From IMG/VR virus record IMGVR_UViG_2851938318_000001: a DNA stretch of 64,000 bases; one strand, 5' to 3'. The DNA comes from a virus (Duplodnaviria > Heunggongvirae > Uroviricota > Caudoviricetes). A model generated the notes under the pieces. The model was not told the origin of the DNA, ran no database searches, and saw nothing but the letters and a program-made list of their open reading frames with translations. Below are positions 7,459-50,191 of the stretch, in pieces. Position 1 is the stretch's first letter; each line of letters opens with the position of its first letter. The translations under genes and the position numbers were made by a program.

Positions 7459-7633
7459 TGGAGAGTTCCCTTTGCGTATATAATTATCGTCTGAAACAAC
7501 TTGTTTTCTTATATGTGATATAGCCTAAATGCCTACGGCTGCGGTGTAAAGGTTAAATGGTAGGTTGTGATTAACAATTTGAACCGCCCCGGAAATCCTG
7601 GAGACTAAACTCCCTGAGAAAGAGGTAAACAGG

Positions 7634-7960
7634 ATGACTAAAAATACTCGTTTTTCCCCCGAAGTCCGTCAGCGGGCGATTCGTATGGTTCTGGAAAGTC
7701 AGGATGAATATGACTCACAGTGGGCGGCAATTTGTTCCATTGCCCCAAAGATTGGCTGTACGCCGGAGACTCTGCGTGTCTGGGTTCGCCAGCATGAGCG
7801 GGATACCGGGGGCGGTGATGGTGGGCTCACCAGCGCTGAACGTCAGCGTCTGAAAGAGCTGGAACGTGAAAATCGTGAACTGCGCCGCAGTAACGATATC
7901 CTTCGCCAGGCTTCCGCTTATTTTGCGAAGGCGGAGTTCGACCGCCTCTGGAAAAAATGA
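7634..7960 (+). CDS. IS3-family transposase OrfA (HTH)
   Basis: 108 aa; A-run at the orfA/orfB overlap consistent with -1 frameshifting. Confidence 0.85.
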
Positions 7961-8847
7961 TGCCACTGCTGGATAAGCTGCGTGAGCAGTACGGGGTCGG
8001 ACCGGTATGCAGCGAACTGCATATTGCCCCGTCAACGTATTACCATTGTCAGCAACAGCGACATCATCCGGATAAACGCAGTGCCCGTGCGCAGCACGAC
8101 GACTGGCTGAAGAGAGAGATACAGCGCGTATACGATGAAAATCATCAGGTGTACGGTGTGCGTAAAGTCTGGCGTCAGTTGTTACGGGAAGGAATCAGGG
8201 TGGCCAGATGTACAGTGGCACGTCTCATGGCGGTTATGGGACTTGCCGGTGTTCTCCGGGGTAAAAAGGTCCGTACGACCATCAGCCGGAAAGCCGTTGC
8301 CGCAGGCGACCGCGTAAACCGTCAGTTCGTGGCAGAACGACCTGACCAGCTGTGGGTGGCTGATTTTACTTACGTCAGCACATGGCAGGGCTTCGTCTAT
8401 GTGGCGTTTATCATTGATGTGTTTGCCGGATACATCGTGGGGTGGCGGGTCTCATCGTCTATGGAAACGACATTCGTGCTGGATGCGCTGGAGCAGGCGT
8501 TGTGGGCCCGTCGTCCGTCTGGCACCATCCATCACAGCGATAAAGGCTCTCAGTATGTGTCACTGGCCTATACGGAGCGACTAAAAGAAGCCGGATTACT
8601 GGCATCAACAGGGAGTACAGGCGACTCGTATGACAACGCGATGGCTGAGAGCATCAATGGTCTTTACAAAGCGGAGGTAATACACCGTAAGAGCTGGAAA
8701 AACCGTGCAGAAGTGGAACTGGCCACACTAACGTGGGTGGACTGGTATAACAATCGACGATTGCTGGGAAGGCTGGGCCATACTCCTCCGGCAGAAGCAG
8801 AAAAAGCTTATTATGCTTCCATCGGAAACGATGATCTGGCAGCCTGA
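7957..8847 (+). CDS. IS3-family transposase OrfB (DDE catalytic domain)
   Basis: 296-aa ORF in the -1 frame relative to OrfA. Confidence 0.85.
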
Positions 8848-9089
8848 GTTCACAGATAAAACACTCTCCAGGAAACCCGGGGCGGTTCAATTGGCAATCA
8901 TAGCTTGTATTTGTCTGTTGAAAAAAGTAACAATGACCTCTATATTACAAGTACGGTGATATGCCGTACACAATTTGATAATGCACACGTAATGGGCTAT
9001 AGCCTTTTAAAGTAATTTTTGAGTCGAAAACTCAGTTTGAACAGAGGAGATTGATGGCCTTCCTACATCACGGCCATCAGGAGGAATAC

Positions 9090-19530: not shown

Positions 19531-19572
19531 TGAACCGCCCCGGGTTTCCTGGAGAGTGTTTTATCTGTGAAC

Positions 19573-20463
19573 TCAGGCTGCCAGATCATCGTTTCCGATG
19601 GAAGCATAATAAGCTTTTTCTGCTTCTGCCGGAGGAGTATGGCCCAGCCTTCCCAGCAATCGTCGATTGTTATACCAGTCCACCCACGTTAGTGTGGCCA
19701 GTTCCACTTCTGCACGGTTTTTCCAGCTCTTACGGTGTATTACCTCCGCTTTGTAAAGACCATTGATGCTCTCAGCCATCGCGTTGTCATACGAGTCGCC
19801 TGTACTCCCTGTTGATGCCAGTAATCCGGCTTCTTTTAGTCGCTCCGTATAGGCCAGTGACACATACTGAGAGCCTTTATCGCTGTGATGGATGGTGCCA
19901 GACGGACGACGGGCCCACAACGCCTGCTCCAGCGCATCCAGCACGAATGTCGTTTCCATAGACGATGAGACCCGCCACCCCACGATGTATCCGGCAAACA
20001 CATCAATGATAAACGCCACATAGACGAAGCCCTGCCATGTGCTGACGTAAGTAAAATCAGCCACCCACAGCTGGTCAGGTCGTTCTGCCACGAACTGACG
20101 GTTTACGCGGTCGCCTGCGGCAACGGCTTTCCGGCTGATGGTCGTACGGACCTTTTTACCCCGGAGAACACCGGCAAGTCCCATAACCGCCATGAGACGT
20201 GCCACTGTACATCTGGCCACCCTGATTCCTTCCCGTAACAACTGACGCCAGACTTTACGCACACCGTACACCTGATGATTTTCATCGTATACGCGCTGTA
20301 TCTCTCTCTTCAGCCAGTCGTCGTGCTGCGCACGGGCACTGCGTTTATCCGGATGATGTCGCTGTTGCTGACAATGGTAATACGTTGACGGGGCAATATG
20401 CAGTTCGCTGCATACCGGTCCGACCCCGTACTGCTCACGCAGCTTATCCAGCAGTGGCATCAT
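19573..20463 (-). CDS. IS3-family transposase OrfB
   Basis: 296-aa ORF identical to the copy-1 OrfB. Confidence 0.85.
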
Positions 20464-20786
20464 TTTTTCCAGAGGCGGTCGAACTCCGCCTTCGCAAAAT
20501 AAGCGGAAGCCTGGCGAAGGATATCGTTACTGCGGCGCAGTTCACGATTTTCACGTTCCAGCTCTTTCAGACGCTGACGTTCAGCGCTGGTGAGCCCACC
20601 ATCACCGCCCCCGGTATCCCGCTCATGCTGGCGAACCCAGACACGCAGAGTCTCCGGCGTACAGCCAATCTTTGGGGCAATGGAACAAATTGCCGCCCAC
20701 TGTGAGTCATATTCATCCTGACTTTCCAGAACCATACGAATCGCCCGCTGACGGACTTCGGGGGAAAAACGAGTATTTTTAGTCAT
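20460..20786 (-). CDS. IS3-family transposase OrfA
   Basis: 108-aa ORF identical to the copy-1 OrfA. Confidence 0.85.
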
Positions 20787-20840
20787 CCTGTTTACCTCTT
20801 TCTCAGGGAGTTTAGTCTCCAGGATTTCCGGGGCGGTTCA

Positions 20841-39711: not shown

Positions 39712-40602
39712 TTATGCCGGTAAAGCAATTTCTAACGGTTTATCCAAAGGTTGTTTGTCGAATGCCAGCAGTGGCAGCGTGTCAGGCAGTCGACGACCAA
39801 AGTCAGGGTTTCGATACACACCATACAACGGAGACGTAAAGCTCAGGTTGTGAATGTCCTTGAGCAGCTTCACAATGCTGGCCTCGTCCACCAGACTGTC
39901 GGCAATGTCCTGAATCGTCGTGCCACGATTCCGCCCAGCTTTTGCCAGGGAACTGTTCTTGTGGTAGTCCGCCACCAGATCACGCAGTGCACGGCGACGA
40001 CGTGACTCGCTCATTGCGAACAACTCTTTGACGATCGCCTCGTTATCACCCGGGTCGGAGCGGAAATGGCGCTGGAACACACGCAGTGCACTTTCATAGC
40101 TCTTCGGTCGCTCAGGGCGGATGAACTTGAACCCTGCTTTCATGGCGAAGGGATTGTATTTGCTCATCGAGGATTGGATCTCAATGATTGGCCGGTCATG
40201 CATCCTGCTAACCAGGTTAATCATTCGATAAGAGACGCCTACGCCACGGTACTGAGTATCCACAACTGAGCGGCTGATCACCGCAAAGTTGTTATTCACG
40301 TACCGGCCCCAGTACTGGTTAGCCACGGTGGTATTGGTGGTTGGTTTCAACTTAGGAAACATGCGATGGCGAGGTGCCAGCAGAAGTTTCGGGTAAGCCA
40401 TAACCACGACGCCCACCAGACGGTCATCCAGTTCGCAGCGATAGTATGTTGGCGCGAAAGGTTTGCCGTCTGTTTTGTAGTGAAGCGACTTAAGAGCGTG
40501 CCAGTCCTCTACAGTTCCCTTTGTGACAGTCATTCGCTCCAGAAAGTCCAGATGACGCGGAAACTCTTCAGGGCGGTAGCGTTTAATGATGATGTCCGTC
40601 AT
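39712..40602 (-). CDS. GNAT-like protein (putative acyltransferase fold)
   Basis: 296 aa; motif ISRSVVDTQYRGVGVSYRMINL resembles the GNAT acyl-CoA loop; start overlaps the ATPase stop by 4 nt. Confidence 0.35.
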   Translation of the reverse strand: MTDIIIKRYRPEEFPRHLDFLERMTVTKGTVEDWHALKSLHYKTDGKPFAPTYYRCELDDRLVGVVVMAYPKLLLAPRHRMFPKLKPTTNTTVANQYWGRYVNNNFAVISRSVVDTQYRGVGVSYRMINLVSRMHDRPIIEIQSSMSKYNPFAMKAGFKFIRPERPKSYESALRVFQRHFRSDPGDNEAIVKELFAMSESRRRRALRDLVADYHKNSSLAKAGRNRGTTIQDIADSLVDEASIVKLLKDIHNLSFTSPLYGVYRNPDFGRRLPDTLPLLAFDKQPLDKPLEIALPA

Positions 40603-41264
40603 GAATGGACCTCATCATAACTACCATTGTGATATTCCACCTTCACGCGTTCTTTGTAGTGCTTGGTGATCTGCATATCCGGGCGCAGCGCGTTCTTCAG
40701 GTCTTCGTGAGTCGTCGCCACCATTACCGTCGCACCAACCTTTCGAGCGGCACGCTGGAGGTTAGATGCCACAACCTGAGCGGTTACACGGTCTAGAACA
40801 GCACCGAACTCGTCAGCAGCCCACACTTTAGCGCCTGACTCAATCAGTTTGGCAATCTTGAGACGATATTTCTGACCGTCTGACATTTCAGAAGGCTTGC
40901 GAACAAACAGATATGCATCGTTCAGACCAGCCATAGATAACAACCCAAGCGCATCGCTGGTCGTTTTGCCCAACTGATCGATGACGTTAACCTCATTATC
41001 GAAGGTAAAATCATCGATGGAGGCTACAGACAGCCCTTCATCCTTCATCTGGCGTTGCAGCTCGCGCAACACAACGGATTTACCTGAACCGGATTGGCCG
41101 GTGATGTACACCACATCGCCCTGCTTCACTTCCAGCTCCAGATTGTCGTAAAGCGTCCACTCTTTTTCGTCCAGGCCAAGCCCGAACGACTCAGCGATTT
41201 CCAACGTGCGCGTGGTTTTATTTACGCGTGTCTGAAACGATACGTTGATGATGTATTTACTCAT
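40599..41264 (-). CDS. ABC-type P-loop ATPase (stand-alone)
   Basis: 221 aa; Walker A GQSGSGKS, signature-like MSDGQKYRL, Walker B VWAADEF, H-loop TTHE. Confidence 0.65.
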   Translation of the reverse strand: MSKYIINVSFQTRVNKTTRTLEIAESFGLGLDEKEWTLYDNLELEVKQGDVVYITGQSGSGKSVVLRELQRQMKDEGLSVASIDDFTFDNEVNVIDQLGKTTSDALGLLSMAGLNDAYLFVRKPSEMSDGQKYRLKIAKLIESGAKVWAADEFGAVLDRVTAQVVASNLQRAARKVGATVMVATTHEDLKNALRPDMQITKHYKERVKVEYHNGSYDEVHS

Positions 41265-41929
41265 GCAGCCATCTCCCCGGAAGAGATCTTCTCCGCATAT
41301 GCCACAAATGCGTCTACCCCGCTTTCTCCCGTCATTTCTTCCATATGGGCAAGCAAATCACCAACAACAATGGCAGAGCCAGCAGGGAGCGTTTTAAAGC
41401 CCAATACGTCGACAACACGTACTTCTTCCGCTGCAACTTCACGACTGATCTCGGTGTGTTCATCCTTCTGTCGTTTAGTTTCTTCGCCAAGATCGATAAC
41501 TAGCGAGTCGGTGTCCATTTCTTCTGTCATACTGCCAACGAGAACATTCAACTCACGCTCTTCAAAGCCGAAAACCTCGATATCGTCCAGAACAAGCGAC
41601 TCAAGCTCTTTCTGTAGCTTAATTGCATCGTAATCAATGCTGGCAAGTCGGTTATCTTCAAGGCGCTTCGCACGAACCTCGTCATCACTGAGATCATCGC
41701 GAACAATAACCGGTACGCGCTCAAGTCCAGCAAAAATTGCAGCCTCACGGCGGCCGTGGCCAGTAATAATTACGTCGTTCTTATCGACCGTAATTGGCTG
41801 GTCAAATCCGCGCTTTTTAATGGCTGCGGCCAGATCTCGGATCTGCTGTTCATCATGCTTTTTGGCATTCATCTCATAGGGAATAAGATCTGCCGGGTCG
41901 CGATATACGATTTCAAACTTTTTGGTCAT
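41261..41929 (-). CDS. ParB/Srx-domain protein 1
   Basis: ParB box-II-like ITGHGRREAAIFAG; start taken at Met 41929, sharing one nt with the upstream stop. Confidence 0.65.
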   Translation of the reverse strand: MTKKFEIVYRDPADLIPYEMNAKKHDEQQIRDLAAAIKKRGFDQPITVDKNDVIITGHGRREAAIFAGLERVPVIVRDDLSDDEVRAKRLEDNRLASIDYDAIKLQKELESLVLDDIEVFGFEERELNVLVGSMTEEMDTDSLVIDLGEETKRQKDEHTEISREVAAEEVRVVDVLGFKTLPAGSAIVVGDLLAHMEEMTGESGVDAFVAYAEKISSGEMAA

Positions 41930-42627
41930 TACATACGCTCCTTGTAGTAGTCGACCAGCCACACCAGAGCCTCACCAGCGTTCTCCATTTCATTACCGGT
42001 GTTAATAGCCTGCTCTTTGATGATGTTTTTTATGGTTTCTGCAACACGATCTGACGCATCGAAAGTTACTTTGAAGCGCATGGTCTGATGTTCCGCCCCC
42101 ACACGTTCGGTTTTCTCTCGTTTGTCGGTATCGACAGGCTCATCACTACCACGAGACAACGCCTCCAGTGCTTCAAGGTCGATTGCCGCCTCTTTTGCTA
42201 AAACCATCGAGATTTCGTCGTCATACGGGGCGATTTCAGACAGTTGATAGTCAAGTTCTGACTGAATTTCTTCAATGAAGCGTTGCAATGCGATTTGGTC
42301 GTCTTCACCGTATCGCTCGTTGTCCACCAGTGACATCTGTTTAGCTACGACATCGCTAATTTTGCCCACAGAAAGCACCGGAACCGTTGAAATTCCTTGC
42401 TCAATAGCAGCACGCCAGCGATGTTCGCCGCCGAGGATTTCAAAAAATCCATCTTCAAGTTCACGAGCCAAAATTGGCTTAAAAAAGCCCAATTTTTCGA
42501 TAGAACCTTTCAGTTTTTCAAAATTCTGCGCACCAACCGAATTGGTGTTCCAGGTATTCGGGCGAAGGTTGGCAACATCAACCTGCAAAATCGTGATTTT
42601 TACATCCATTTTATTGCTACAATCCAC
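41929..42627 (-). CDS. ParB/Srx-domain protein 2
   Basis: 232 aa; ParB box-II-like ILGGEHRWRAAIEQGI; first gene of the operon; phage palindromic motif at 42627..42648. Confidence 0.65.
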   Translation of the reverse strand: MDCSNKMDVKITILQVDVANLRPNTWNTNSVGAQNFEKLKGSIEKLGFFKPILARELEDGFFEILGGEHRWRAAIEQGISTVPVLSVGKISDVVAKQMSLVDNERYGEDDQIALQRFIEEIQSELDYQLSEIAPYDDEISMVLAKEAAIDLEALEALSRGSDEPVDTDKREKTERVGAEHQTMRFKVTFDASDRVAETIKNIIKEQAINTGNEMENAGEALVWLVDYYKERM

Positions 42628-42691
42628 TAAGTAATTACTTACTTATTATAATAGCCAAATAACATACAAAAGGCACTAAGGAAAGAGGTTT

Positions 42692-44251
42692 ATGACTGTT
42701 CGGATTGTATCTAACGCAGTAAATGCGCTTATTTCTGGCGCAGATGACAAGGTAAAGCAACTGGTGCAGCAAATGTTGAGCTACGAAGTCGAGACTGGCG
42801 ACTGGAAGGGCACAAGCACGATGTTCAACTGGAGTAAAAACTCGTTCCCTGCTGGCTTTGCCAAGCCTGTAGCAGCGAACTTGAACAAGGCGGGCATCAA
42901 ATGTGTTCATATCCGCAAAGACAAAGCCCCGGCGCTTGGTAAACCAAATCCGGCGGTTAACCCATTCCCATACAATCCTGATTATGCGTATCAGGATCAG
43001 ACTGTGGAAACACTGGTTCGAGAGGGAATGATGATTGCGCAGATCGCTACTGGTGGCGGGAAATCTAATGTTGCCTGCAAAGCAGCTGCACGTATCGGTC
43101 GAATGACATTATTTTTAACAACCCGCTCTGTTCTGATGTTTCAGATGGCCGAAAACTTCCAGAGATCCATCGACTACCGCGCCGAAAATGGCGAACCGTG
43201 GTTAAAAGACCAAAAGGTTGGAGTAATTGGCTCGGGTGAGTTCCAGGTATCACGACATATCAACGTCGCTACAGTTCAAACTCTTGCAAGTTTCCTTGAA
43301 GAACCACCACGCGATGCAACTCCAGATAAGAAAAGCTACCACCTCAAACGTCGGGAGTTGGTGAAACGCTTCCTTTCAAGTGTCTCTCTTCTTATTCTGG
43401 AAGAGGCGCATGAGTCTTCAGGCTCTAATTTCTATGACATTGCCAGATTATGTGCGAACGCAGACTATCGCCTGGCGCTTACGGCAACGCCGTTCATGAA
43501 GGATTCTACGGAAGCCAACATGCGTCTGATGGCTGTAGCCGGGCGAATTGAAATAAAAGTCACGGAAAAGTACCTGATTGATAGAGGAATTCTGGCAAAG
43601 CCATACTTCCTTTATCATAAAGTTGCCTACAAACCGGACGAGGTCAGAATCAAGGCAGAACTTGCTAACAAACACCTCAATTTTAGAGTAGGTATGAGCA
43701 CTGCCTACCAAAAGGCTTATCAGTTGGGGATCGTGTATAATTTGGGACGTAACGAGGCCATTGTGCGCGAAGCATTGCTCTATAAGCAACACTCTCTCAA
43801 CTGCATGACTCTGGTTCGTCTTAAACGCCACGGGCAAATCCTGATGGAGATGATGAAGGAGTCCGGTCTTAGAGTTGACTTCATCTATGGGGAATCGAAC
43901 CAGGCGACAAGGCAAGCAAAGCTGAACAGTTTAGCGTCTGGTGAAATAGATGTTTTAATAGGCTCGACTATTCTGGATGTCGGTGTTGATGTGCCAAGCG
44001 TTGGTGCGGTCATTCTTGCTGGTGGCGGGAAAGCAGAAGTTGAAATGAGACAACGTGTCGGTCGTGGCTTACGAGCCAAGAAGAATCAGGCAAACGTGTG
44101 TTTTATCACTGATTTCATTGACATTAGCAACAAATACCTGTTGTCTCACTCTTATGAGCGAAAACACATCATCGACACTACACCTGGCTTTGCAGAAGGT
44201 GTATTGCCAATTGATGGCACATTCGATTTTGGAGTTCTGAAACGAGATTAG
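42692..44251 (+). CDS. SF2 DEAD/DEAH-box family helicase
   Basis: 519 aa; motif I TGGGKS, motif II LEEAHE, motif III LTATP, motif VI QRVGRGLR; ATG preceded by AAGAGG. Confidence 0.75.
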   Translation: MTVRIVSNAVNALISGADDKVKQLVQQMLSYEVETGDWKGTSTMFNWSKNSFPAGFAKPVAANLNKAGIKCVHIRKDKAPALGKPNPAVNPFPYNPDYAYQDQTVETLVREGMMIAQIATGGGKSNVACKAAARIGRMTLFLTTRSVLMFQMAENFQRSIDYRAENGEPWLKDQKVGVIGSGEFQVSRHINVATVQTLASFLEEPPRDATPDKKSYHLKRRELVKRFLSSVSLLILEEAHESSGSNFYDIARLCANADYRLALTATPFMKDSTEANMRLMAVAGRIEIKVTEKYLIDRGILAKPYFLYHKVAYKPDEVRIKAELANKHLNFRVGMSTAYQKAYQLGIVYNLGRNEAIVREALLYKQHSLNCMTLVRLKRHGQILMEMMKESGLRVDFIYGESNQATRQAKLNSLASGEIDVLIGSTILDVGVDVPSVGAVILAGGGKAEVEMRQRVGRGLRAKKNQANVCFITDFIDISNKYLLSHSYERKHIIDTTPGFAEGVLPIDGTFDFGVLKRD

Positions 44252-44253
44252 TT

Positions 44254-44532
44254 ATGAGCGAAAAGAAAACAACTTATTGCCAAGTGGCATTGTCTGATAA
44301 AGCCAATGAAAAACTTGGAAAATTTCAAATAAAACTCAAAGAGAAAAAAATCAAGATGTCTAAGGCTGAAGTTATCAATGCCATTCTGGAGACGATGACT
44401 ATGGCTGAATTTGACAAAGTCACATCTGCCGTTGGGGTTTCCGCTAAGACGCGTGAGAAAATCATGCGCATCTATGAGAACTCCAATATGACAAAAAAAG
44501 ATCTAGAGGAAATACTGAGCAGGTTGCCGTAA
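44254..44532 (+). CDS. hypothetical small protein
   Basis: 92-aa Lys-rich ORF starting 3 nt after the helicase stop. Confidence 0.4.
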   Translation: MSEKKTTYCQVALSDKANEKLGKFQIKLKEKKIKMSKAEVINAILETMTMAEFDKVTSAVGVSAKTREKIMRIYENSNMTKKDLEEILSRLP

Positions 44533-44597
44533 CATTTCATATTTACCCCCTATCTACTAAATCTATGATGTGCTCACTTGTTAGAAAGGAGCACATC

Positions 44598-45164
44598 ATG
44601 AGTTGGTTAAAAGAATTATCATTTGTTGACACCACTGGCGCTAAGAAAAATCATTCTTTCTGGAAAGTCAGCGATCCTTCTGATTTTCTTGTTGGTGCTA
44701 ATGCTGCTTTTGAATTGCTTAACTTTTATCAACGTTATCCTGAAATGAAACACAGTCCACTCCTGTACAGAATAACAAACGATATGAATAGGTCTGGTTT
44801 ATTATCAAGTGAGTCAGCGAAAGGCTTTTTTAGCAAAATTACGCCTCACATATCATTCGATGCAGCAAACGAAATTGATTATCTATCCACAAAATCTCAA
44901 GAACAATTATCTGTGCCACCTGAGAAAAAAGAAAGACGAATTGCCAGCATTGAAAATATATCGAAAGAGCTTCGCACAACAACGTTGAGGCTGCTGAACT
45001 TTCTTACGCTACTTAATTGGATAGATGATCAAACATTGATTCCATCAACCGATGCGTTGGATAACAGAGTCCTTAGGCTGAACAAAAAATCGCAATTTGG
45101 TTTTGTGTTCACCAAAAAAGGTGAAGATTTAATCAAAAGAAAATATAGATTATTGAATGATTAA
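44598..45164 (+). CDS. hypothetical protein
   Basis: ATG 44598 preceded by AAAGGAG; AT-rich codon usage. Confidence 0.4.
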   Translation: MSWLKELSFVDTTGAKKNHSFWKVSDPSDFLVGANAAFELLNFYQRYPEMKHSPLLYRITNDMNRSGLLSSESAKGFFSKITPHISFDAANEIDYLSTKSQEQLSVPPEKKERRIASIENISKELRTTTLRLLNFLTLLNWIDDQTLIPSTDALDNRVLRLNKKSQFGFVFTKKGEDLIKRKYRLLND

Positions 45165-45549
45165 TAGTCTACATGCAGGTGTATGAGAGCACCTGCATGT
45201 GACATTCATCACATTTTTGAATGTATATACCTTCGGCTGAAAAAAGATCTTGATAGGCTGAATGATATTTGTAGGCTTCGCCTCCGAAGAAATTCGGAGG
45301 ATATATGCGACAATTTATAAAAACGTGTGACCTAAGAAATATAGTAGATGATATTGCATGTGATGAAATTAGCAAAAAAGAGAAGAACAAAAACGCCAAT
45401 TAACGCTATCTACCTATAAATCTGAAGAGTTCAATAGGATACATATCTGAAACACGCCCTCGACAATACCAAAAAGATTTGTCGAGGGCGTCGGGCTTTC
45501 CCTATGTCTGAACGATTAAATTTTACAGCAATTAAATATTTTGTATATG

Positions 45550-46350
45550 TTATTCTTCTGGTGGTACGACAAAATCGTCGAGCTTATTCTTTTCGTCCCG
45601 AAGCAACCTGATTTCTTCTTCTGTTATGCATTTGTCATAATCTGTTTGTTCAGAATGGCACAGCGCAACTGCGAATGGATAGCCGGTGTAAGACAGCCCT
45701 CTAACAGGTTCTAATTCACCGTTGTCTTTTTTCCTAAATTTGTAAAAGTCAGGAGTGTCATAATTGGTGACGCTAACAAGAGCATATTTATCATTTTCTC
45801 TTGCATACACTTCACTAACACCTCTCGATTCTCCCAACTCTCTACTCACATATGTCGAATCACTTGCAGCATCAAACACAGCCTGACCTAATGGAGTTTT
45901 TTTTAAATCATCTATTTTCTCTTTTTCTTTCCTGATTTTAGATTCGTTTTCCAGATAAAGTTTCACACCATTTTCTTTACATGCTAGATTTTGGCGTTCA
46001 AAACGTAATCGTTCACTTGCCGAGTTGGTACTTTTATCCATTGTAACGAATACAATCGGGTTACGTTCACGAACATCAAAGATGTGTGCATTGAATGCGG
46101 TCGCACCTGTATAGGCGTTCAAGACGTTTTTGCCATTCACCTCTCCACATACCATATATGAATAGCTATTTTCACCTAACTGAATAGCTCGCATATTCGT
46201 GAACCGACCAGCATCAGGATCTAGCAGTGTAGAGCGAATATCCTTTTCAACTAGATTTATGACTCGCTCTTCATCAGAATCACAACCTGTTAATAGTAAA
46301 GCCGCTATTAACAATGCTAATGAGTATTTTTTATTCACCCCATTCTTCAT
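45550..46350 (-). CDS. putative lipoprotein
   Basis: 266 aa; signal peptide with lipobox LTGC; shares a domain with the 160..573 lipoprotein. Confidence 0.5.
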   Translation of the reverse strand: MKNGVNKKYSLALLIAALLLTGCDSDEERVINLVEKDIRSTLLDPDAGRFTNMRAIQLGENSYSYMVCGEVNGKNVLNAYTGATAFNAHIFDVRERNPIVFVTMDKSTNSASERLRFERQNLACKENGVKLYLENESKIRKEKEKIDDLKKTPLGQAVFDAASDSTYVSRELGESRGVSEVYARENDKYALVSVTNYDTPDFYKFRKKDNGELEPVRGLSYTGYPFAVALCHSEQTDYDKCITEEEIRLLRDEKNKLDDFVVPPEE

Positions 46351-46452
46351 GAAACTTATTCCATAATCAATTTTTGGTGGAATGTACGGTTAGTCTGTCT
46401 ACGCATCATAGAGATGTATATAATGACCAAAAAAGACTTAAAAAGGTAGACT

Positions 46453-46974
46453 ATGGTTAAAGACATCACCTACGGCATACCGGCTGAAGTCTGGCCGCGA
46501 GACTACGAACATGCTGAAAACATACTTATGTTCTGGCGGAAGAACAACATTCCTGTAAGAGTCACGCTTGAAGACGGTCAGGTGTTTTGCATGTACGTTC
46601 AGGGGACAATGCCTTCCCGCAATAAGCTAGATTTATGCCCGCTTCCATATGATAAAGAAAATCGTATAAGACTCCCACTTGAGCGCATTAGCACAATTGA
46701 ATCAGGTGTAATCGATGGCATTGCTCGCGAGTTCAAAGGTAGGCTAACAATACATCCAGACTATGTTGACAATCAGCCATCACGCCGTGACTTTTTTGCG
46801 ATATGTCGCAAGGCTTATCAAAACGACCAATCTATAAGGGTCTACATGGCAGACGGTCGTGAAATAGAAGGGGTGTCAAGAGGCGTTGATGCTTGCCAGG
46901 TCACTCTTAAGTTAGAAGACGGCAGAAAAATACTTGTTTTCTTCGATTGGGTTGAACGAATCCTTCCTTTTTAA
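46453..46974 (+). CDS. hypothetical protein with an internally duplicated domain
   Basis: 173 aa; two similar halves (IPVRVTLEDGQVF / IRVYMADGREIEGV). Confidence 0.4.
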   Translation: MVKDITYGIPAEVWPRDYEHAENILMFWRKNNIPVRVTLEDGQVFCMYVQGTMPSRNKLDLCPLPYDKENRIRLPLERISTIESGVIDGIAREFKGRLTIHPDYVDNQPSRRDFFAICRKAYQNDQSIRVYMADGREIEGVSRGVDACQVTLKLEDGRKILVFFDWVERILPF

Positions 46975-47269
46975 ATCTATAAGGGTAATAACCGGCTAAG
47001 TCCGGTTATTATTTTACATGCCATTCATTTAAAACTCTTTCAATGCTACGCTGTATAAATATATAAGGTTAAAAGCCTGAATTGATTATTTATTTAGGGA
47101 ACACCTTCGACGATCTCGCTTTTATTTCTAGGACTTTCATCCCTGCAAAAAATTTAAAAAAAACACTTGCAATCTTTTTTCACGTATCGATAATTGAACT
47201 CGTCGAAAGCGAGCTAGCTAACGACAGTAAAAAATAAATTCATTTTAATTTTTCGTAAGGATGTCCATC

Positions 47270-47920
47270 ATGGCTAACATTATCATTTCTAAAAAATCCA
47301 TCATTGAAGCTGCTTCCATTGTATCCGATGAACTGCGCGAAAAAGCAGATCTGGCAACTCAAACATATAACGAACATTATAAAAATGGTACGCACACTAA
47401 AGCAGACAAAGCAAATATGCAAGCTGCGACCACTAAACTTGCTTACTTCATCAACAACGTTGTAAACGCTGTTGAAGACGAAAAATTATGCTCTGTTTTC
47501 TACTATGCAATTAAAGCAAGCAAACAAGCGCCAGAAGTATTTTTCCGTGATGCAATGACTAATAGTTATTCACTGGAAAAACTGGTTTATCTGGTTAAAT
47601 CCATTAAAGCTGGTAAATGTGTTTATTCCGTCGCTGATATGTCAGGATCTCGTGTATTCGCTTTAATCGATATGATTAACGACGAGATCGACACGTTCAC
47701 CAATGGCGCTGTTTTCGATTTAATGAATGAAGCTAAAAAAGCGTGTGAAATTAAATTGGACGCTGGATATACTCAAGCCAACCAGTTGATCAATCTTTGC
47801 GAACGTCTCGGACTTGTTGAAAAAGTCAAAGGAGCTGGGAGCGCCAAAGCTGGTACGCAGCAATATCGCTTCATTAAAAATGATTTCTACAATTATTTAG
47901 CTGATGCTTTCAAAGCGTAA
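47270..47920 (+). CDS. hypothetical protein
   Basis: Start placed at second ATG (47270), 9 nt after TAAGGA; hairpin gcgcccactttgggcgc follows the stop. Confidence 0.4.
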   Translation: MANIIISKKSIIEAASIVSDELREKADLATQTYNEHYKNGTHTKADKANMQAATTKLAYFINNVVNAVEDEKLCSVFYYAIKASKQAPEVFFRDAMTNSYSLEKLVYLVKSIKAGKCVYSVADMSGSRVFALIDMINDEIDTFTNGAVFDLMNEAKKACEIKLDAGYTQANQLINLCERLGLVEKVKGAGSAKAGTQQYRFIKNDFYNYLADAFKA

Positions 47921-47942
47921 TTAATGGAATCAAGCGCCCACT

Positions 47943-48173
47943 TTGGGCGCTTTAAAGGAGCTTTCAAAAATGGTCAGCTATGACAAGATCCGCGCGGAAT
48001 ATCGCGCAAAGTATCGCGCTTATAAACTGGAATTAATCGATGATTTGATCGCGCAACGCGACCAATTAAATTTTACGTTTTCTGATTTGCTTAACAGTAA
48101 ACGAGATTGTAAGCGTAAACGTGAATATTTACGTTTAAGCGCATTAATCGGAAAACTGCAAAATTCTATTTAA
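47943..48173 (+). CDS. hypothetical small basic protein
   Basis: 76-aa ORF, Arg/Lys-rich. Confidence 0.35.
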   Translation: MGALKELSKMVSYDKIRAEYRAKYRAYKLELIDDLIAQRDQLNFTFSDLLNSKRDCKRKREYLRLSALIGKLQNSI

Positions 48174-48193
48174 TTTTTTTAAGGAGCTTAATC

Positions 48194-48421
48194 ATGGTTA
48201 TTTTCATCTCTGGCGTAAATATCAATAATCATACTCTTGTTTATGATATTGCTGGTTTAGCTGGATATGCTCTAAGTTCTGAAGTGGTTGATGAAACAAC
48301 GTTTAAAATAAACATCAATGACGTAGAACATAGAGCGCGCGTAGGAATCAATGAAGCTGATGTTACTTTAATGCTTCAAGAATTTTTAAACGCTGGCTTT
48401 AATATTCACTTAGAAAAATAA
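48194..48421 (+). CDS. hypothetical small protein
   Basis: 75-aa ORF followed by a strong terminator. Confidence 0.35.
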   Translation: MVIFISGVNINNHTLVYDIAGLAGYALSSEVVDETTFKININDVEHRARVGINEADVTLMLQEFLNAGFNIHLEK

Positions 48422-48428
48422 AAACAAT

Positions 48429-48453
48429 AGCGCCCACTATGGGCGCTTTTTTT
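48429..48453 (+). terminator. rho-independent terminator closing the plus-strand accessory genes
   Basis: Hairpin agcgcccactatgggcgct followed by a T7 run; a second hairpin cgcgccaatgatggcgcg plus T-run lies at about 48476..48500. Confidence 0.6.
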
Positions 48454-48736
48454 CGTTTCCAATACTCCCACCATAACGCGCCAATGATGGCGCGTTTTTT
48501 ATTGTCTTTAACTCACTCCAACAACATAAAAATAAGCACCAAAATAACGCCATAGACGCGCTTTTATATCCTTGCCAGTACATACCCATTACTTAACACA
48601 TTAACGCGCTTAAAACGCGTTATAGCGCATAGTTAATCATTGGCTTTTAGTCTTGCTATGTAATCCGCGTTTAATTGTCGGCGCGGATCGGCATTTTGTG
48701 TTGTTCTGTATCCGCTCGCGTATTATGTGCGCGTGA

Positions 48737-49020
48737 TTTTTCACATAATCACACCACTTAATCACGTATGTGATTACGCTACGAAAGAAATCTGGATGTC
48801 TCAGGCGACGAAAGTCATCATAATTTTCCCCGCTCGCCTGTCCGACAACCGCTGGTTGGATTCCACCAGCTTCCCGATGTTTTTTCTACACAAAGGCGAA
48901 TGCAGCCGTTTCCCGAAAAAATCCTGGCCGTTCCCCGTCGGCTCATGAATACGTTCCTCGCCGTTTCTGAAAATTTCCCTGCGGCAGCTGGTGGCTATAG
49001 AGAAAGGGCCGTTTCTGGCC
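48737..49020. repeat. iteron-like direct repeat cluster 1 with a DnaA-box-like site
   Basis: GCCGTT(T)CC cores at 48905, 48927, 48960 and 49008 (22-, 33-, 48-bp steps); TTTTTCACA at 48737..48745. Confidence 0.5.
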
Positions 49021-49030
49021 CTCTTCTCAG

Positions 49031-49513
49031 TTACACGCCATCAAGGATGTGGATGCGGTTGCTTGCGTATACATTCAGCATAAAGTTAGCGCAAAACAGT
49101 TTCCATGTGTCAACGCCAGCGGTATACGTAATATTTTTGCATTTAATTGCATTGTTGGCGATCCGCATCCCCTGCGATACTGCTTCATCGTCGGAAAATT
49201 TGAACGACGATTGAGTTTTAATCCAGACAGAAATCTGCGTAGCGAACTCAATCAGCTTGGACTGGCAGAATCGCCCGGAGCGCACCGGAAAGACGAACGT
49301 TCCGAATCCAGAATTTACCACATACGCTTTCTCAAATACCCGCGAGTAACGACGATTACCAATGATGTCACGTGCAATAATGCATTTTTCTTGTGCTGAC
49401 AGTTCTACCGTCTCATTGTCGCGCCATGCACCAAGTACTCGTTTTTCAATGTCAGAGAACGTTACAGCGATATTGCCATGTGCGGGTGCGTTTACAGTAG
49501 CGATAAAATTCAT
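49031..49513 (-). CDS. hypothetical protein (early small-gene array)
   Basis: 160-aa ORF; conserved AAACAA-N-TTGTTTTCTT element at 49535..49570 upstream. Confidence 0.45.
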   Translation of the reverse strand: MNFIATVNAPAHGNIAVTFSDIEKRVLGAWRDNETVELSAQEKCIIARDIIGNRRYSRVFEKAYVVNSGFGTFVFPVRSGRFCQSKLIEFATQISVWIKTQSSFKFSDDEAVSQGMRIANNAIKCKNITYTAGVDTWKLFCANFMLNVYASNRIHILDGV

Positions 49514-49717
49514 GATTAATTCCTTATCGTAAATAACAAATTGTTTTCTTGTTGTTGTTAATTATCGCTGTACGAATAAGGCGTCAAAGTTGAAAACTAC
49601 GGTAGCCGGACGGGAACAGGTGGGTTTGTCGGTTGCCTGGAGGTAAGAGGTTGGTGTTTTTAGCCTGCGGGAAACAAGATGGTCATTTAAGGCCACCAGC
49701 ATTGGTGGCCTTATTCT

Positions 49718-49999
49718 TTAGTGGAGTAGAGCGATGTCGATGGTATCCCCTGAATCATCCACACGGATCATCAGCATGGCGAAGGCGTTTAGTGGATAAC
49801 TGGCGTGCCATTCAGGGAAGCGGTCATCTCGCATGAAGTCAGCAATGTCGTAAACGCAGCCCTCAAAGTGGAAGAATCGCGTGCTTACCTGCTCGTCATA
49901 ATCCACATGATCCATTTCTTGCTGTTCTGTTTCCGGCAAGTCCAGCCATGATTCGAGGAATACATTTTGTGCTTTGGTGGTAATGGTGAAATCAGTCAT
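49718..49999 (-). CDS. hypothetical small protein (array member)
   Basis: Start at second Met (49999), 7 nt after AGGA; N-terminal 19 codons lie in a 57-bp repeat shared with 50482..50540. Confidence 0.45.
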   Translation of the reverse strand: MTDFTITTKAQNVFLESWLDLPETEQQEMDHVDYDEQVSTRFFHFEGCVYDIADFMRDDRFPEWHASYPLNAFAMLMIRVDDSGDTIDIALLH

Positions 50000-50191
50000 G
50001 AGCATATCCTAACTGCGTAAACATGTTGTTTTCTTGTTGGTGTAATTATCGCAGTGTAGATAAGGCATAAAAGAAGTTAATACAGGCTGAATACGCAAGA
50101 AAGGTTCTGGAAGTTGATAGCTAGGTTTCAAACTAACCTTCGGTTATTAAAAGTCATTTAAGGCCACCAGCGTTAACTGGTGGCCTATATC

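Follow-up and report, generated by a model that had tools for sequence, protein, structure and literature searches.

A conserved arm of SSU5-type phage-plasmids

The plus-strand genes described here form, with a probability of roughly 70%, a conserved arm of an SSU5-type phage-plasmid that runs divergently from the ParB-like genes, and not an acquired island. The whole stretch of DNA analysed (64,000 nucleotides, hereafter the window) corresponds to the E. coli plasmid pRM9131-1 (100% match), a phage-plasmid of the SSU5/pHCM2/Cyrano type. As judged from sequence comparison, the arm is common to about 800 SSU5-type phage-plasmids, and the AT-rich block within it is mostly not imported cargo. 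The initial annotation had described this block as six plus-strand ORFs opposed to the phage backbone. All six were found, at the same or close coordinates, and the backbone is indeed mainly on the minus strand. The block is not made of plus-strand genes only, because a 266-aa lipoprotein gene (45550–46350), overlooked at first, lies on the minus strand.

The 10 annotated relatives share a gene order that runs from the helicase through the 92-aa family, the slot, and the FljA-like, 216-aa, and small genes to the hairpins; one record is truncated on the helicase side and L011, a distant lineage, lacks the small gene, and both fit this order. The succession of helicase, 92-aa, slot, FljA-like and 216-aa genes and hairpins H2 and H3 was present in every relative examined with the region covered, including a lineage with a 35%-identical FljA-like protein. 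We searched the 72,556 plasmids of PLSDB with tblastn and found the 92-aa, FljA-like, and 216-aa genes in 787, 830, and 814 records, respectively, which, with their fixed order in relatives, speaks against the claim that the whole block is acquired cargo. The matches come from Escherichia, Klebsiella, Enterobacter, Yersinia, Salmonella, Citrobacter, and Cronobacter. Only two parts of the arm are patchy, and these are cassette-exchange sites: slot A (about 44565–46350) and slot B (47951–48429). Transcript levels are available for CYRAN_112 to CYRAN_118 in a lysogen of phage Cyrano, an element 97% identical to the window: the helicase, 92-aa, lipoprotein, and FljA-like genes show transcription, the 188-aa gene hardly any, and the 216-aa and 67-aa genes are silent (PMC9928086, table S1).

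The FljA-like gene encodes a predicted tandem Sm-like protein

The core gene at 46453–46974 (plus strand) encodes a 173-aa FljA-family protein with a full-length match to Pfam Flag1_repress (PF03614, E = 5e-81). To call the function of the block unknown was too pessimistic for this gene. The internal duplication noticed earlier in its product is clear in the alignment, which consists of two repeats, and in the structural model, where a helix followed by five strands occurs twice. The model contains two tandem Hfq/Sm domains (pLDDT 79), and the Pfam match to Hfq is below threshold (18.9 bits versus 27). We thus have a predicted tandem Sm/Hfq-like RNA-binding protein that differs from Hfq/Sm-like proteins in having two Sm-like domains in one chain, instead of one per subunit, and in a sequence similarity under the Pfam thresholds. 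Its gene is transcribed in Cyrano lysogens, more in cell-culture/macrophage samples than in overnight LB (PMC9928086, table S1).

Salmonella FljA, encoded in the fljBA operon, is a post-transcriptional repressor of fliC, which encodes phase-1 flagellin. The two proteins share the family match over the full length, their size and two-repeat layout, and the conserved WPRDY and RDFF helix starts; by analogy, sequence-specific mRNA binding is probably also the activity of the FljA-like protein. The genetic context differs. A chromosomal clade of the family, about 40% identical to the FljA-like protein, is encoded directly behind a flagellin gene, as is P0084, whereas none of the phage-plasmid copies has a flagellin neighbour. 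Unlike that of Salmonella FljA, the gene occurs on about 830 phage-plasmids, some of them from non-flagellated Klebsiella, and 821 of the 830 PLSDB records cover at least 80% of the protein. We looked for a fliC-UTR-like sequence in the element and found none. A distance tree places the flagellin-linked clade among the lineages found on phage-plasmids.

We consider it unlikely that the protein is a true phase-1 flagellin repressor, with which the lysogen would shut host FliC off as a form of lysogenic conversion (with effects on motility, the H antigen, recognition by TLR5, or sensitivity to phages that depend on flagella), and that the other genes of the block have nothing to do with it. The full-length PF03614 match, the 29 invariant positions that it has in common with the flagellin-linked clade, and its transcription pattern in lysogens would agree with such a role. 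Hosts in E. coli, Salmonella, Enterobacter, and Citrobacter are flagellated in many cases, and a role on flagellin is possible in E. coli and Salmonella because these hosts have fliC. However, Klebsiella is classically non-flagellated, and 341 plasmids of this genus and a distant lineage from it carry an intact gene under purifying selection; Y. pestis keeps the gene as well (62 plasmids). Retention thus extends to hosts lacking or not expressing flagellin, and dN/dS is 0.09–0.16. The identity of only about 40% to the flagellin-linked clade, together with the missing flagellin neighbour, points the same way, as do LF82 (Cyrano) and S. Typhi CT18 (pHCM2), which carry the gene and which we take to be motile strains. 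The missing flagellin partner gene, and purifying selection on the copies from Klebsiella and Y. pestis plasmids, make it probable that the target is not fliC. We therefore favour a tandem-Sm RNA-binding post-transcriptional regulator, which would act on a transcript of the phage-plasmid or a non-flagellin transcript of the host.

Composition and conservation of the core genes

The AT-richness reported for the block was confirmed, with a GC of 0.36–0.42 versus about 0.47. Successive 1-kb intervals from 44001 to 49000 have GC values of 0.391, 0.363, 0.415, 0.370, and 0.402, when most of the window lies between 0.45 and 0.53, and the block is the longest AT-rich stretch within it. Hence, composition is not uniform with the backbone, but the block is largely conserved in relatives. 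We ranked the 68 genes by CAI, with weights after Sharp and Li 1987; with the major head, scaffold, and major-tail-like genes at the top, the ranking appears sound. There are two sources of this AT-richness: genes of the slots combine low GC with low CAI, with the 188-aa and lipoprotein genes lowest (ranks 65 and 53), whereas the 216-aa gene combines low GC with high CAI.

This 216-aa core gene (47270–47920, plus strand, phrog_1513) ranks sixth of 68 in CAI, level with the scaffold and tail genes, and shows low dS in all relatives. Its GC is 0.38–0.41 in 10/10 elements, for backbones of 0.44–0.505. On these comparisons, its AT-richness is an ancestral, selected property, not a foreign one. The orphan protein is modelled as a helical N-terminal part and a C-terminal winged-helix-like domain, and structure comparison gave no specific neighbour; any function assigned to it would be a guess from a generic winged-helix resemblance. 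The gene is silent in Cyrano lysogens (PMC9928086, table S1), and its product would be abundant upon infection or induction.

The arm is headed by an SF2 helicase gene (42692–44251, plus strand; DEAD/ResIII, UvsW-like; Pfam ResIII, DEAD, and Helicase_C; phrog_16), which had been proposed to have arrived together with the block. Its composition is backbone-like (GC 0.469, CAI rank 37/68) and none of the nine relatives for which the fetched sequence extends this far lacks it, so that we count it as a core gene too. It is transcribed in Cyrano lysogens (PMC9928086, table S1). The gene of the 92-aa protein (44254–44532, plus strand, phrog_1466) starts 2 nt past the helicase stop, which suggests translational coupling. 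It is core and fast-evolving: 596 of its 787 PLSDB matches are below 60% identity, and L011 has a distant homologue. Its Cyrano orthologue, CYRAN_117, reaches 12 times the background in lysogens, the highest expression within the arm (PMC9928086, table S1). PDB and Pfam searches with the protein gave no match; from its sequence pattern alone, it may be a ribbon-helix-helix-like regulator.

These data leave very little probability that the whole block, perhaps with the helicase, was horizontally acquired as accessory cargo in a phage backbone, as first proposed, and for the block as a whole the proposal is largely refuted. Such an origin would account for the AT-rich stretch, for the orientation opposite to the backbone, and for the lack of Pfam, NCBIfam, and PADLOC matches in the block outside the FljA-like and helicase genes. 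It does not account for three core genes each present in about 790–830 plasmids of seven or more genera in fixed order, for a helicase conserved in relatives and of backbone composition, or for a 216-aa gene that is as AT-rich in every lineage and has a high CAI; moreover, integrases and transposases are absent and the block as a whole has no flanking repeats. Gene by gene, the acquired-cargo claim holds for the 188-aa, lipoprotein, and 75-aa genes, which are truly patchy, and fails for the core genes.

Cassette exchange at slots A and B

Slot A, of about 1.8 kb, contains here the 188-aa gene and an inverted lipoprotein gene, with one hairpin each. The variable 188-aa gene (44598–45164, plus strand, phrog_13473; 199 aa if translation starts at 44565 instead) has a GC of 0.354 and a CAI of 0.186; PLSDB has 177 records with a match, of which 78 reach ≥90% identity. 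Its product has no match in Pfam, NCBIfam, PADLOC, or PDB. A strong hairpin without U-run lies 3' of it (45170–45203, plus strand, −24.7 kcal/mol, z = −6.4). The lipoprotein gene (phrog_20234; GC 0.388), present in only 60 PLSDB records, is followed by another strong hairpin (45455–45491, minus strand, −26.2 kcal/mol, z = −5.1). Its predicted product has the lipobox LLTGC, then Asp at +2, and an N-terminal half similar to phrog_2320. The Cyrano orthologue, CYRAN_115, is expressed at log2 4.7–9.4 in lysogens (PMC9928086, table S1). In SSU5, pMT1, and pHCM2, an unrelated lipoprotein (phrog_890) occupies the slot.

A lysogen-expressed lipoprotein in slot A would be a lysogenic-conversion or exclusion-type moron. 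Like the superinfection-blocking lipoproteins Llp of T5 and Cor of phi80/N15, it is a small lipoprotein of the envelope that a prophage-type element produces in the lysogenic state; a further likeness is that different lipoprotein families fill the slot in different relatives. Unlike them, it has an Asp at +2, which by the +2 rule would suggest retention in the inner membrane, not outer-membrane localisation. It showed no sequence similarity to either protein in the searches run, and its exclusion role is a candidate one, by analogy.

Slot B is bounded by hairpins. The three hairpins reported earlier as terminators do exist (−15.1, −14.1, and −14.8 kcal/mol; z-scores −2.7 to −3.9), but only the last two look like intrinsic terminators. 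The sequence GCGCCCAnnnTGGGCGC occurs in exactly two copies, at 47934–47950 and 48430–48446, for a chance expectation of 0.01. The first copy is H1 (GCGCCCACTTTGGGCGC, 47934–47950, plus strand), the left boundary of the slot. After it comes UUUAAAGGAG, which is the next gene's ribosome-binding site, and the terminator scan made no call; without a U-run, H1 could at most serve as an attenuator or affect RNA stability. H2 (GCGCCCACTATGGGCGC + U7, 48430–48453, plus strand), the right boundary, is intrinsic-terminator-like, and H3 (AACGCGCCAATGATGGCGCGTT + U6, 48475–48502, plus strand; stem 48475–48496) is a second terminator. The H1 stem is the same in nine SSU5-type relatives and different in L011, the H2 sequence is identical in 10/10 relatives, L011 included, and H3 keeps its stem with a variable loop. 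By alignment and hairpin census, each of the nine SSU5-type relatives has a single small gene after H1 and before H2 and H3; L011 has no small gene and keeps H2 exactly.

The small gene is normally of one of two alternative types, and the window has both in tandem, with no hairpin between them. The first encodes a 67-aa charged helical protein (47970–48173, plus strand, phrog_6145). The ORF annotated from 47943 exists, but its TTG start lies inside H1; the ATG at 47970, 8 nt past AAGGAG and used by RefSeq, is likelier and gives 67 aa. This type occurs alone in SSU5, an E. hormaechei plasmid, and the K. pneumoniae S1 plasmid, and is silent in Cyrano lysogens (PMC9928086, table S1). The 75-aa type (48194–48421, plus strand, phrog_1585; 413 PLSDB records, mostly divergent alleles) occurs alone in pMT1 and pHCM2, and as a divergent allele in Cyrano and K. 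pneumoniae BA4656.

Variable accessory regions (morons) are described in the P1, N15, and SSU5 groups of phage-plasmids (PMC7969092) and in Cyrano (PMC9928086). The two slots resemble them in being patchy, low in GC and CAI, and provided with a hairpin per gene, and at least the slot A lipoprotein is expressed in the lysogen. They differ in being small (about 1.8 kb and 0.25–0.5 kb) and set within a strongly conserved arm, and slot B has a distinctive boundary of two identical terminator-type hairpin copies. It is highly improbable that the slot genes (188-aa and lipoprotein, or 67-aa/75-aa) make up a cassette for anti-phage defence or of toxin-antitoxin type, with the block as a defence hotspot: variable content between conserved core genes, a lipoprotein expressed in lysogens, and the toxin-antitoxin pairs among the other morons of Cyrano would suit it, but PADLOC gave nothing meaningful (one marginal match, SspC at E = 0.004), none of the slot proteins has a recognisable nuclease, ATPase, or toxin domain, and lysogens show hardly any transcription of the 188-aa gene.

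Intergenic elements and putative transcription units

The FljA-like gene is followed by a terminator-like hairpin and then AUUAUUUU (46989–47010, plus strand, −15.0 kcal/mol, z = −4.9), overlooked in the initial annotation. It is invariant in seven relatives, and L011 has a hairpin of different stem sequence at the equivalent site. Upstream of the 216-aa gene, a deeply conserved region contains a sigma-70-like promoter (TTGCAA-16-GATAAT, 47167–47194, plus strand) with A-tracts 5' of it, and its TCGATAAT and CTTG blocks are invariant.

Consensus scans would divide the plus strand into three transcription units: one with the helicase, 92-aa, and 188-aa genes; one with the FljA-like gene, ending at the terminator 46989–47010; and one with the 216-aa, 67-aa, and 75-aa genes, transcribed from the sigma-70-like promoter, dampened by H1, and stopped by H2 and H3. 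This model is limited by the promoter consensus scan, which is not enriched (21 found versus 18.4 expected), and by the layout of SSU5 and pMT1, where the FljA-like gene lies 4 nt past the slot gene and is probably co-transcribed with it.

The same intergenic region contains a repeated motif. M1 (TAAATCTATAAGGGT, 46972–46986, plus strand) overlaps the FljA-like stop codon directly 5' of the terminator hairpin; relatives have it unchanged, and its TATAAGGTAAT core is retained in L011. A second copy, M2 (TAAATATATAAGGTT, 47056–47070, plus strand), is kept in all relatives, L011 included. The pattern has four matches in the window versus 0.32 expected, three of which are in this region. M1, M2, and the promoter blocks are kept in L011, where the flanking proteins are only 35–50% identical.

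Identity of the element and its relatives

Positions 42000–50000 of the window are a 100% match to the E. coli RM9131 plasmid pRM9131-1 (NZ_CP028430.1), and they match the phage-plasmid Cyrano (pLF82) at 97% and the Salmonella phage SSU5 at about 79%. The region is matched by 781 plasmids of PLSDB, nearly all of about 105–115 kb and non-mobilizable, from Escherichia, Klebsiella, Enterobacter, Yersinia (pMT1), Salmonella (pHCM2), Citrobacter, and Cronobacter. Given this set of plasmids and the similarity to Cyrano and SSU5, the window is therefore an SSU5-type phage-plasmid, and its virion module, on the minus strand, is what the initial annotation called the phage backbone. Such elements are very common in clinical Enterobacteriaceae, since about 800 of the 72,556 PLSDB plasmids match, and their regulation is almost unstudied.

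Two IS3-family copies of 1310 bp (7580–8889 and 19531–20840; HTH_Tnp_1 and rve ORFs), 100% identical and in inverted orientation, flank 10.6 kb with the tail-tip (Phage_Tail_Tip) and long-tail-fibre (Gp34_trimer) genes. Inversion or deletion of this host-range module could conceivably follow, and the copies help explain why the plasmid, at 117 kb, exceeds its relatives in size. Upstream of the helicase gene and divergent from it, the minus strand (39712–42627) encodes two ParB-like proteins, a small ABC-type ATPase, and a 296-aa protein annotated in Cyrano as ATPase-associated acetyltransferase-like. This set is kept in all relatives.

Conservation and variation of the plus-strand arm

The initial annotation described six AT-rich plus-strand ORFs closed by tandem terminators, and read them as imported cargo. 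The observation itself is real, with corrections. All six ORFs are present behind the helicase gene (42692–44251), encoding proteins of 92 aa (44254–44532), 188 aa (44598–45164), 173 aa (FljA-like, 46453–46974), 216 aa (47270–47920), 67 aa (47970–48173), and 75 aa (48194–48421). The block is nevertheless not exclusively plus-strand, as it contains a minus-strand gene for a 266-aa lipoprotein (45550–46350). The start once assigned at 47943 must also be moved, because it is a TTG inside a hairpin and the ATG at 47970 (67 aa) is likelier.

A common gene order is found in ten annotated relatives: two ParB-like genes (minus strand), the helicase, the 92-aa family, a variable slot, the FljA-like gene, the 216-aa gene, one small gene, the hairpins, and a 160-aa gene (minus strand). 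The fetched part of one record begins past the helicase, and one of the ten is a distant Klebsiella lineage with a different replicon, a FljA-like protein 35% identical, and no small gene. Searching PLSDB with each protein by tblastn gave 830 plasmid records for the FljA-like gene (821 of them covering at least 80% of the protein), 814 for the 216-aa gene, and 787 for the 92-aa gene. The distribution is patchy for the other three genes searched: 413 records for the 75-aa gene (mostly alleles 35–52% identical), 177 for the 188-aa gene (78 at at least 90% identity), and 60 for the lipoprotein gene. The shared order and these counts argue that the arm is core and that its variation is confined to two places, slot A (about 44565–46350) and slot B (47951–48429). 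Horizontal acquisition as cargo is a valid reading for these two slots only; it fails for the 92-aa, FljA-like, and 216-aa genes, which keep a fixed order across 787–830 records.

Slot A holds phrog_13473 and the inverted lipoprotein gene in the window and in E. hormaechei, an unrelated lipoprotein (phrog_890) in SSU5, pMT1, and pHCM2, and varied combinations of two or three genes in the remaining K. pneumoniae and E. coli relatives. The signal peptide of the window's lipoprotein ends in a lipobox with the invariant Cys, MKNGVNKKYSLALLIAALLLTGC-DSD, as seen in the translation itself. Its equivalence with the SSU5 slot lipoprotein was rejected, the likeness being confined to the signal peptide.

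Among the PADLOC-DB 2.0 defence models, the block proteins gave only generic helicase-domain matches to the helicase and a marginal SspC match (E = 0.004) to the 188-aa protein, and NCBIfam and PADLOC scans of all nine proteins revealed nothing past generic helicase matches. PDB sequence and profile searches with the FljA-like, 92-aa, lipoprotein, and 188-aa proteins produced no meaningful match; designed helical repeats matching the 92-aa profile were discarded as spurious. The 92-aa protein may perhaps be of the ribbon-helix-helix type.

Two kinds of AT-richness

The composition of the block deviates from that of the backbone, as first noticed: five 1-kb windows between 44 and 49 kb have a GC content of 0.36–0.42, versus about 0.45–0.53 elsewhere (around 0.47). 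By gene, GC is 0.325–0.388 for six block genes and 0.446 for the FljA-like gene. We computed the codon adaptation index (CAI) with the weights of Sharp and Li 1987 and used the ranking of the virion genes as a sanity check; the major head protein has the top CAI in the window. The slot genes are AT-rich and poorly codon-adapted (188-aa gene: GC 0.354, CAI 0.186, rank 65 of 68; lipoprotein gene: GC 0.388, CAI 0.229, rank 53 of 68). The 216-aa gene is AT-rich and well adapted (GC 0.381, GC3 0.34, CAI 0.430, rank 6 of 68), level with the scaffold (0.429) and a major-tail-like protein (0.436).

This gene has a GC content of 0.38–0.41 in all ten elements, independent of the GC of the backbone, and a synonymous divergence of 0.67–1.06 where helicase comparisons are saturated. 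Because its synonymous divergence is low, megablast finds it in Klebsiella relatives and little else of the arm. The constant GC, the high CAI, and the low synonymous divergence together show a composition that is ancestral and selected, not foreign. The gene is the most instructive element of the arm in this respect, and a caution that low GC can mirror long-standing selection instead of foreign origin.

Conserved spacer upstream of the 216-aa gene

The 295-bp spacer between the FljA-like and 216-aa genes is strikingly conserved among relatives. It includes a motif copy at the FljA-like stop codon (M1, 46972–46986; TAAATCTATAAGGGT), an invariant terminator-like hairpin of the FljA-like gene (46989–47010; −15.0 kcal/mol), a second motif copy 84 bp beyond the first (M2, 47056–47070), two more blocks without variation, a sigma-70-like promoter (TTGCA-16-GATAAT) preceded by A-tracts, and a ribosome-binding site (TAAGGAT) before the 216-aa gene. 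These blocks are kept in the distant Klebsiella lineage despite flanking proteins only 35–50% identical; the terminator stem there has the same position and a different sequence. Such conservation points to a tightly regulated promoter. Here and below, we infer targets and transcription units. Short TATAAGGRT-type motifs were rejected as a window-wide signal, as they are not enriched elsewhere in the window; the one notable occurrence is the local pair of 15-mers, M1 and M2.

In pHCM2, an extra insertion of about 310 bp (7539–7850 of the L007 record) lies exactly at the FljA-like stop codon, before M1, and begins with an ORF having a signal-peptide-like start (MKAILLSSILLASSTAASA...). This point is a third small insertion site of the arm.

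Public RNA-seq data are available for a Cyrano lysogen in LF82, 97% identical to the window region (log2 FPKM, background near 2.3; PMC9928086, table S1). The orthologue of the 92-aa gene, listed by the authors as a moron at 12 times background, reads 6.3–9.9, and those of the helicase, lipoprotein, and FljA-like genes read 5–8, 4.7–9.4, and 4.2–8.1. Values are 2.3–5.9 for the 188/199-aa orthologue, 2.3–4.9 for the 67-aa orthologue, and 2.3–3.9 for the 216-aa orthologue, which rises up to 5.6 late in macrophages. Both ParB-like genes stay close to background in these lysogens (PMC9928086).

A FljA-family protein without a flagellin partner

The 173-aa protein matches the Pfam family PF03614 (Flag1_repress) with 270.9 bits (cut-off 24; E = 5e-81) over its full length (residues 4–170 on profile positions 1–170 of 170), and also matches phrog_1444. 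Its nearest homologues are all on phage-plasmids of about 105–112 kb. A clade about 40% identical to it is named phase-1 flagellin repressor, and a chromosomal homologue from this clade (P0084) lies directly behind a flagellin gene. Salmonella FljA, which represses by binding the fliC 5′ UTR, blocking translation, and destabilising the mRNA, likewise sits just downstream of the alternative flagellin gene fljB and is co-expressed with it, whereas the phage-plasmid copies have no flagellin neighbour, either in the window (where the neighbours are the lipoprotein and 216-aa genes) or in the ten relatives.

Klebsiella accounts for 341 of the 830 plasmids with a FljA-like match, and Y. pestis for 62. 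Klebsiella is classically non-flagellated. E. coli and Salmonella hosts do offer a fliC mRNA for repression, and Klebsiella and Y. pestis would not. Pairwise dN/dS of the FljA-like gene is 0.09–0.16. Since Klebsiella is a non-flagellated host, a role restricted to flagellin cannot explain the retention of the gene. Databases label it 'repressor of phase-1 flagellin' or 'transcriptional regulator', and these data suggest that the former is a misnomer for the phage-plasmid clade, inherited from Salmonella FljA.

The internal duplication attributed to this product from its sequence was borne out by alignment and by an AF2 model (pLDDT 79, pTM 0.78), which has a helix and five strands, twice. The model thus has the arrangement of the Sm/Hfq fold, in which an N-terminal helix leads into an antiparallel sheet of five strands that is strongly bent, and the predicted activity is RNA binding by two Hfq-like units in one protein. 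It remains below the Pfam thresholds for Hfq (18.9 bits, cut-off 27) and LSM (14.5 bits, cut-off 23.4), and a PDB search returned no solved structure with a sequence match. A literature search retrieved no paper linking SSU5-type elements or pHCM2 to fljA function, and none on FljA as an Sm-like protein. This FljA-family protein, with its predicted tandem Sm domains and no flagellin partner, is the most informative element.

One joint reading, to which we assign a probability of only about 15%, is that SSU5-type phage-plasmids encode, in their FljA-family protein, a sequence-specific tandem-Sm repressor that binds mRNA and acts on the element's own transcripts, and that Salmonella FljA is a domesticated offshoot of the phage-plasmid family, not the reverse. 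One candidate target would be the codon-optimised winged-helix gene next to it (216 aa), which is preceded by the conserved UAUAAGG-type motifs M1 and M2 and the UAAGGAU ribosome-binding site. The lysis-lysogeny or establishment decision would thereby gain an RNA-level layer. The flagellin-linked clade branches among phage-plasmid lineages in a distance tree rooted at its midpoint, which is weak evidence on the direction of transfer. If the protein does control phage-plasmid transcripts, it would be an example of a temperate phage with a dedicated translational regulator of the Sm type and hint at the origin of flagellar phase-variation control.

We gave up the idea that the element contains a fliC-like operator: the 5′ UTR of fliC from E. 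coli K-12, aligned locally with the 216-aa gene UTR, the intergenic regions, and the whole window, scored no better than with shuffles.

An allele of the FljA-like gene at least 95% identical to that of the window is present in only 41 PLSDB plasmids, versus 186 for the adjacent 216-aa gene, and otherwise near-identical E. coli elements carry FljA-like alleles 64–79% identical. These figures indicate a mosaic gene, swapped between lineages though always present. An E. coli chromosome (CP125919.1, 5.2 Mb; locus L014, 386158–396682) has a FljA-like ORF, 48% identical and degraded in appearance, whose neighbours are short ORFs (92, 76, and 93 aa) resembling those of the phage-plasmid arm. The locus is probably a decaying integrated SSU5-type element.

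Slot B, its hairpins, and the downstream stretch

The 17-nt palindrome GCGCCCAnnnTGGGCGC occurs exactly twice in the window (0.01 expected), at 47934 (H1, 47934–47950) and 48430 (H2, 48430–48453), and the third hairpin of the initial annotation (H3) is present at 48475–48496. The stems have similar folding energies (H1 −15.1, H2 −14.1, and H3 −14.8 kcal/mol). They differ in the U-run that follows, which is U7 in H2, U6 in H3, weak in the hairpin of the FljA-like gene (AUUAUUUU), and missing in H1 (UUUAAAGG). The role of terminators proposed for these hairpins would fit H2 and H3, which score as terminator-like, but not H1, which runs into UUUAAAGGAG, where the next gene has its ribosome-binding site. 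In SSU5, AUUUUU directly follows the H1 stem. An Rfam search of 42–50 kb at a permissive threshold gave only sub-threshold matches, on terminator hairpins.

Nine SSU5-type relatives have the same succession after the 216-aa gene: H1, a single small gene, H2 (the H1 stem with a U-run), and H3. The small gene is of the 67-aa type in SSU5, E. hormaechei, and K. pneumoniae S1, of the 75-aa type in pMT1 and pHCM2, and a divergent 75-aa allele in Cyrano and K. pneumoniae BA4656. The window is unusual in having the 67-aa and 75-aa types in tandem, with no hairpin between them. The H1 loop of pHCM2 is the reverse complement of the usual loop, and the distant Klebsiella lineage, which lacks the small gene, keeps H2 exactly. 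The identical stems of H1 and H2 are a plausible substrate for cassette exchange, of which this hairpin-bounded slot would be a tidy example; the conservation of the hairpins at the sequence level leaves room for a specific binding role.

SSU5 (SSU5_119), PHROG 6145, and some plasmids (K. oxytoca AP014953.1) label the 67-aa protein 'MIT family metal ion transporter (CorA)'. The protein is short, highly charged, and helical, with no Pfam match, and the label looks like a propagated mis-annotation.

Beyond the hairpins, about 530 bp between convergent gene ends (48497–49030) are conserved between genera and, in part, as far as the distant Klebsiella lineage, with blocks that include GCCGTTTCY (three copies), CAGCCGTTTCCCGAAAA, and TTCCCTGCGGCAGCTGGTGG. 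A structured RNA in this stretch found no support (RNAalifold covariation term +1.13, no Rfam match). RefSeq places a 50-aa ORF at 48796–48948, and non-triplet indels among relatives argue against its coding. The stretch may be a cis-acting DNA site.
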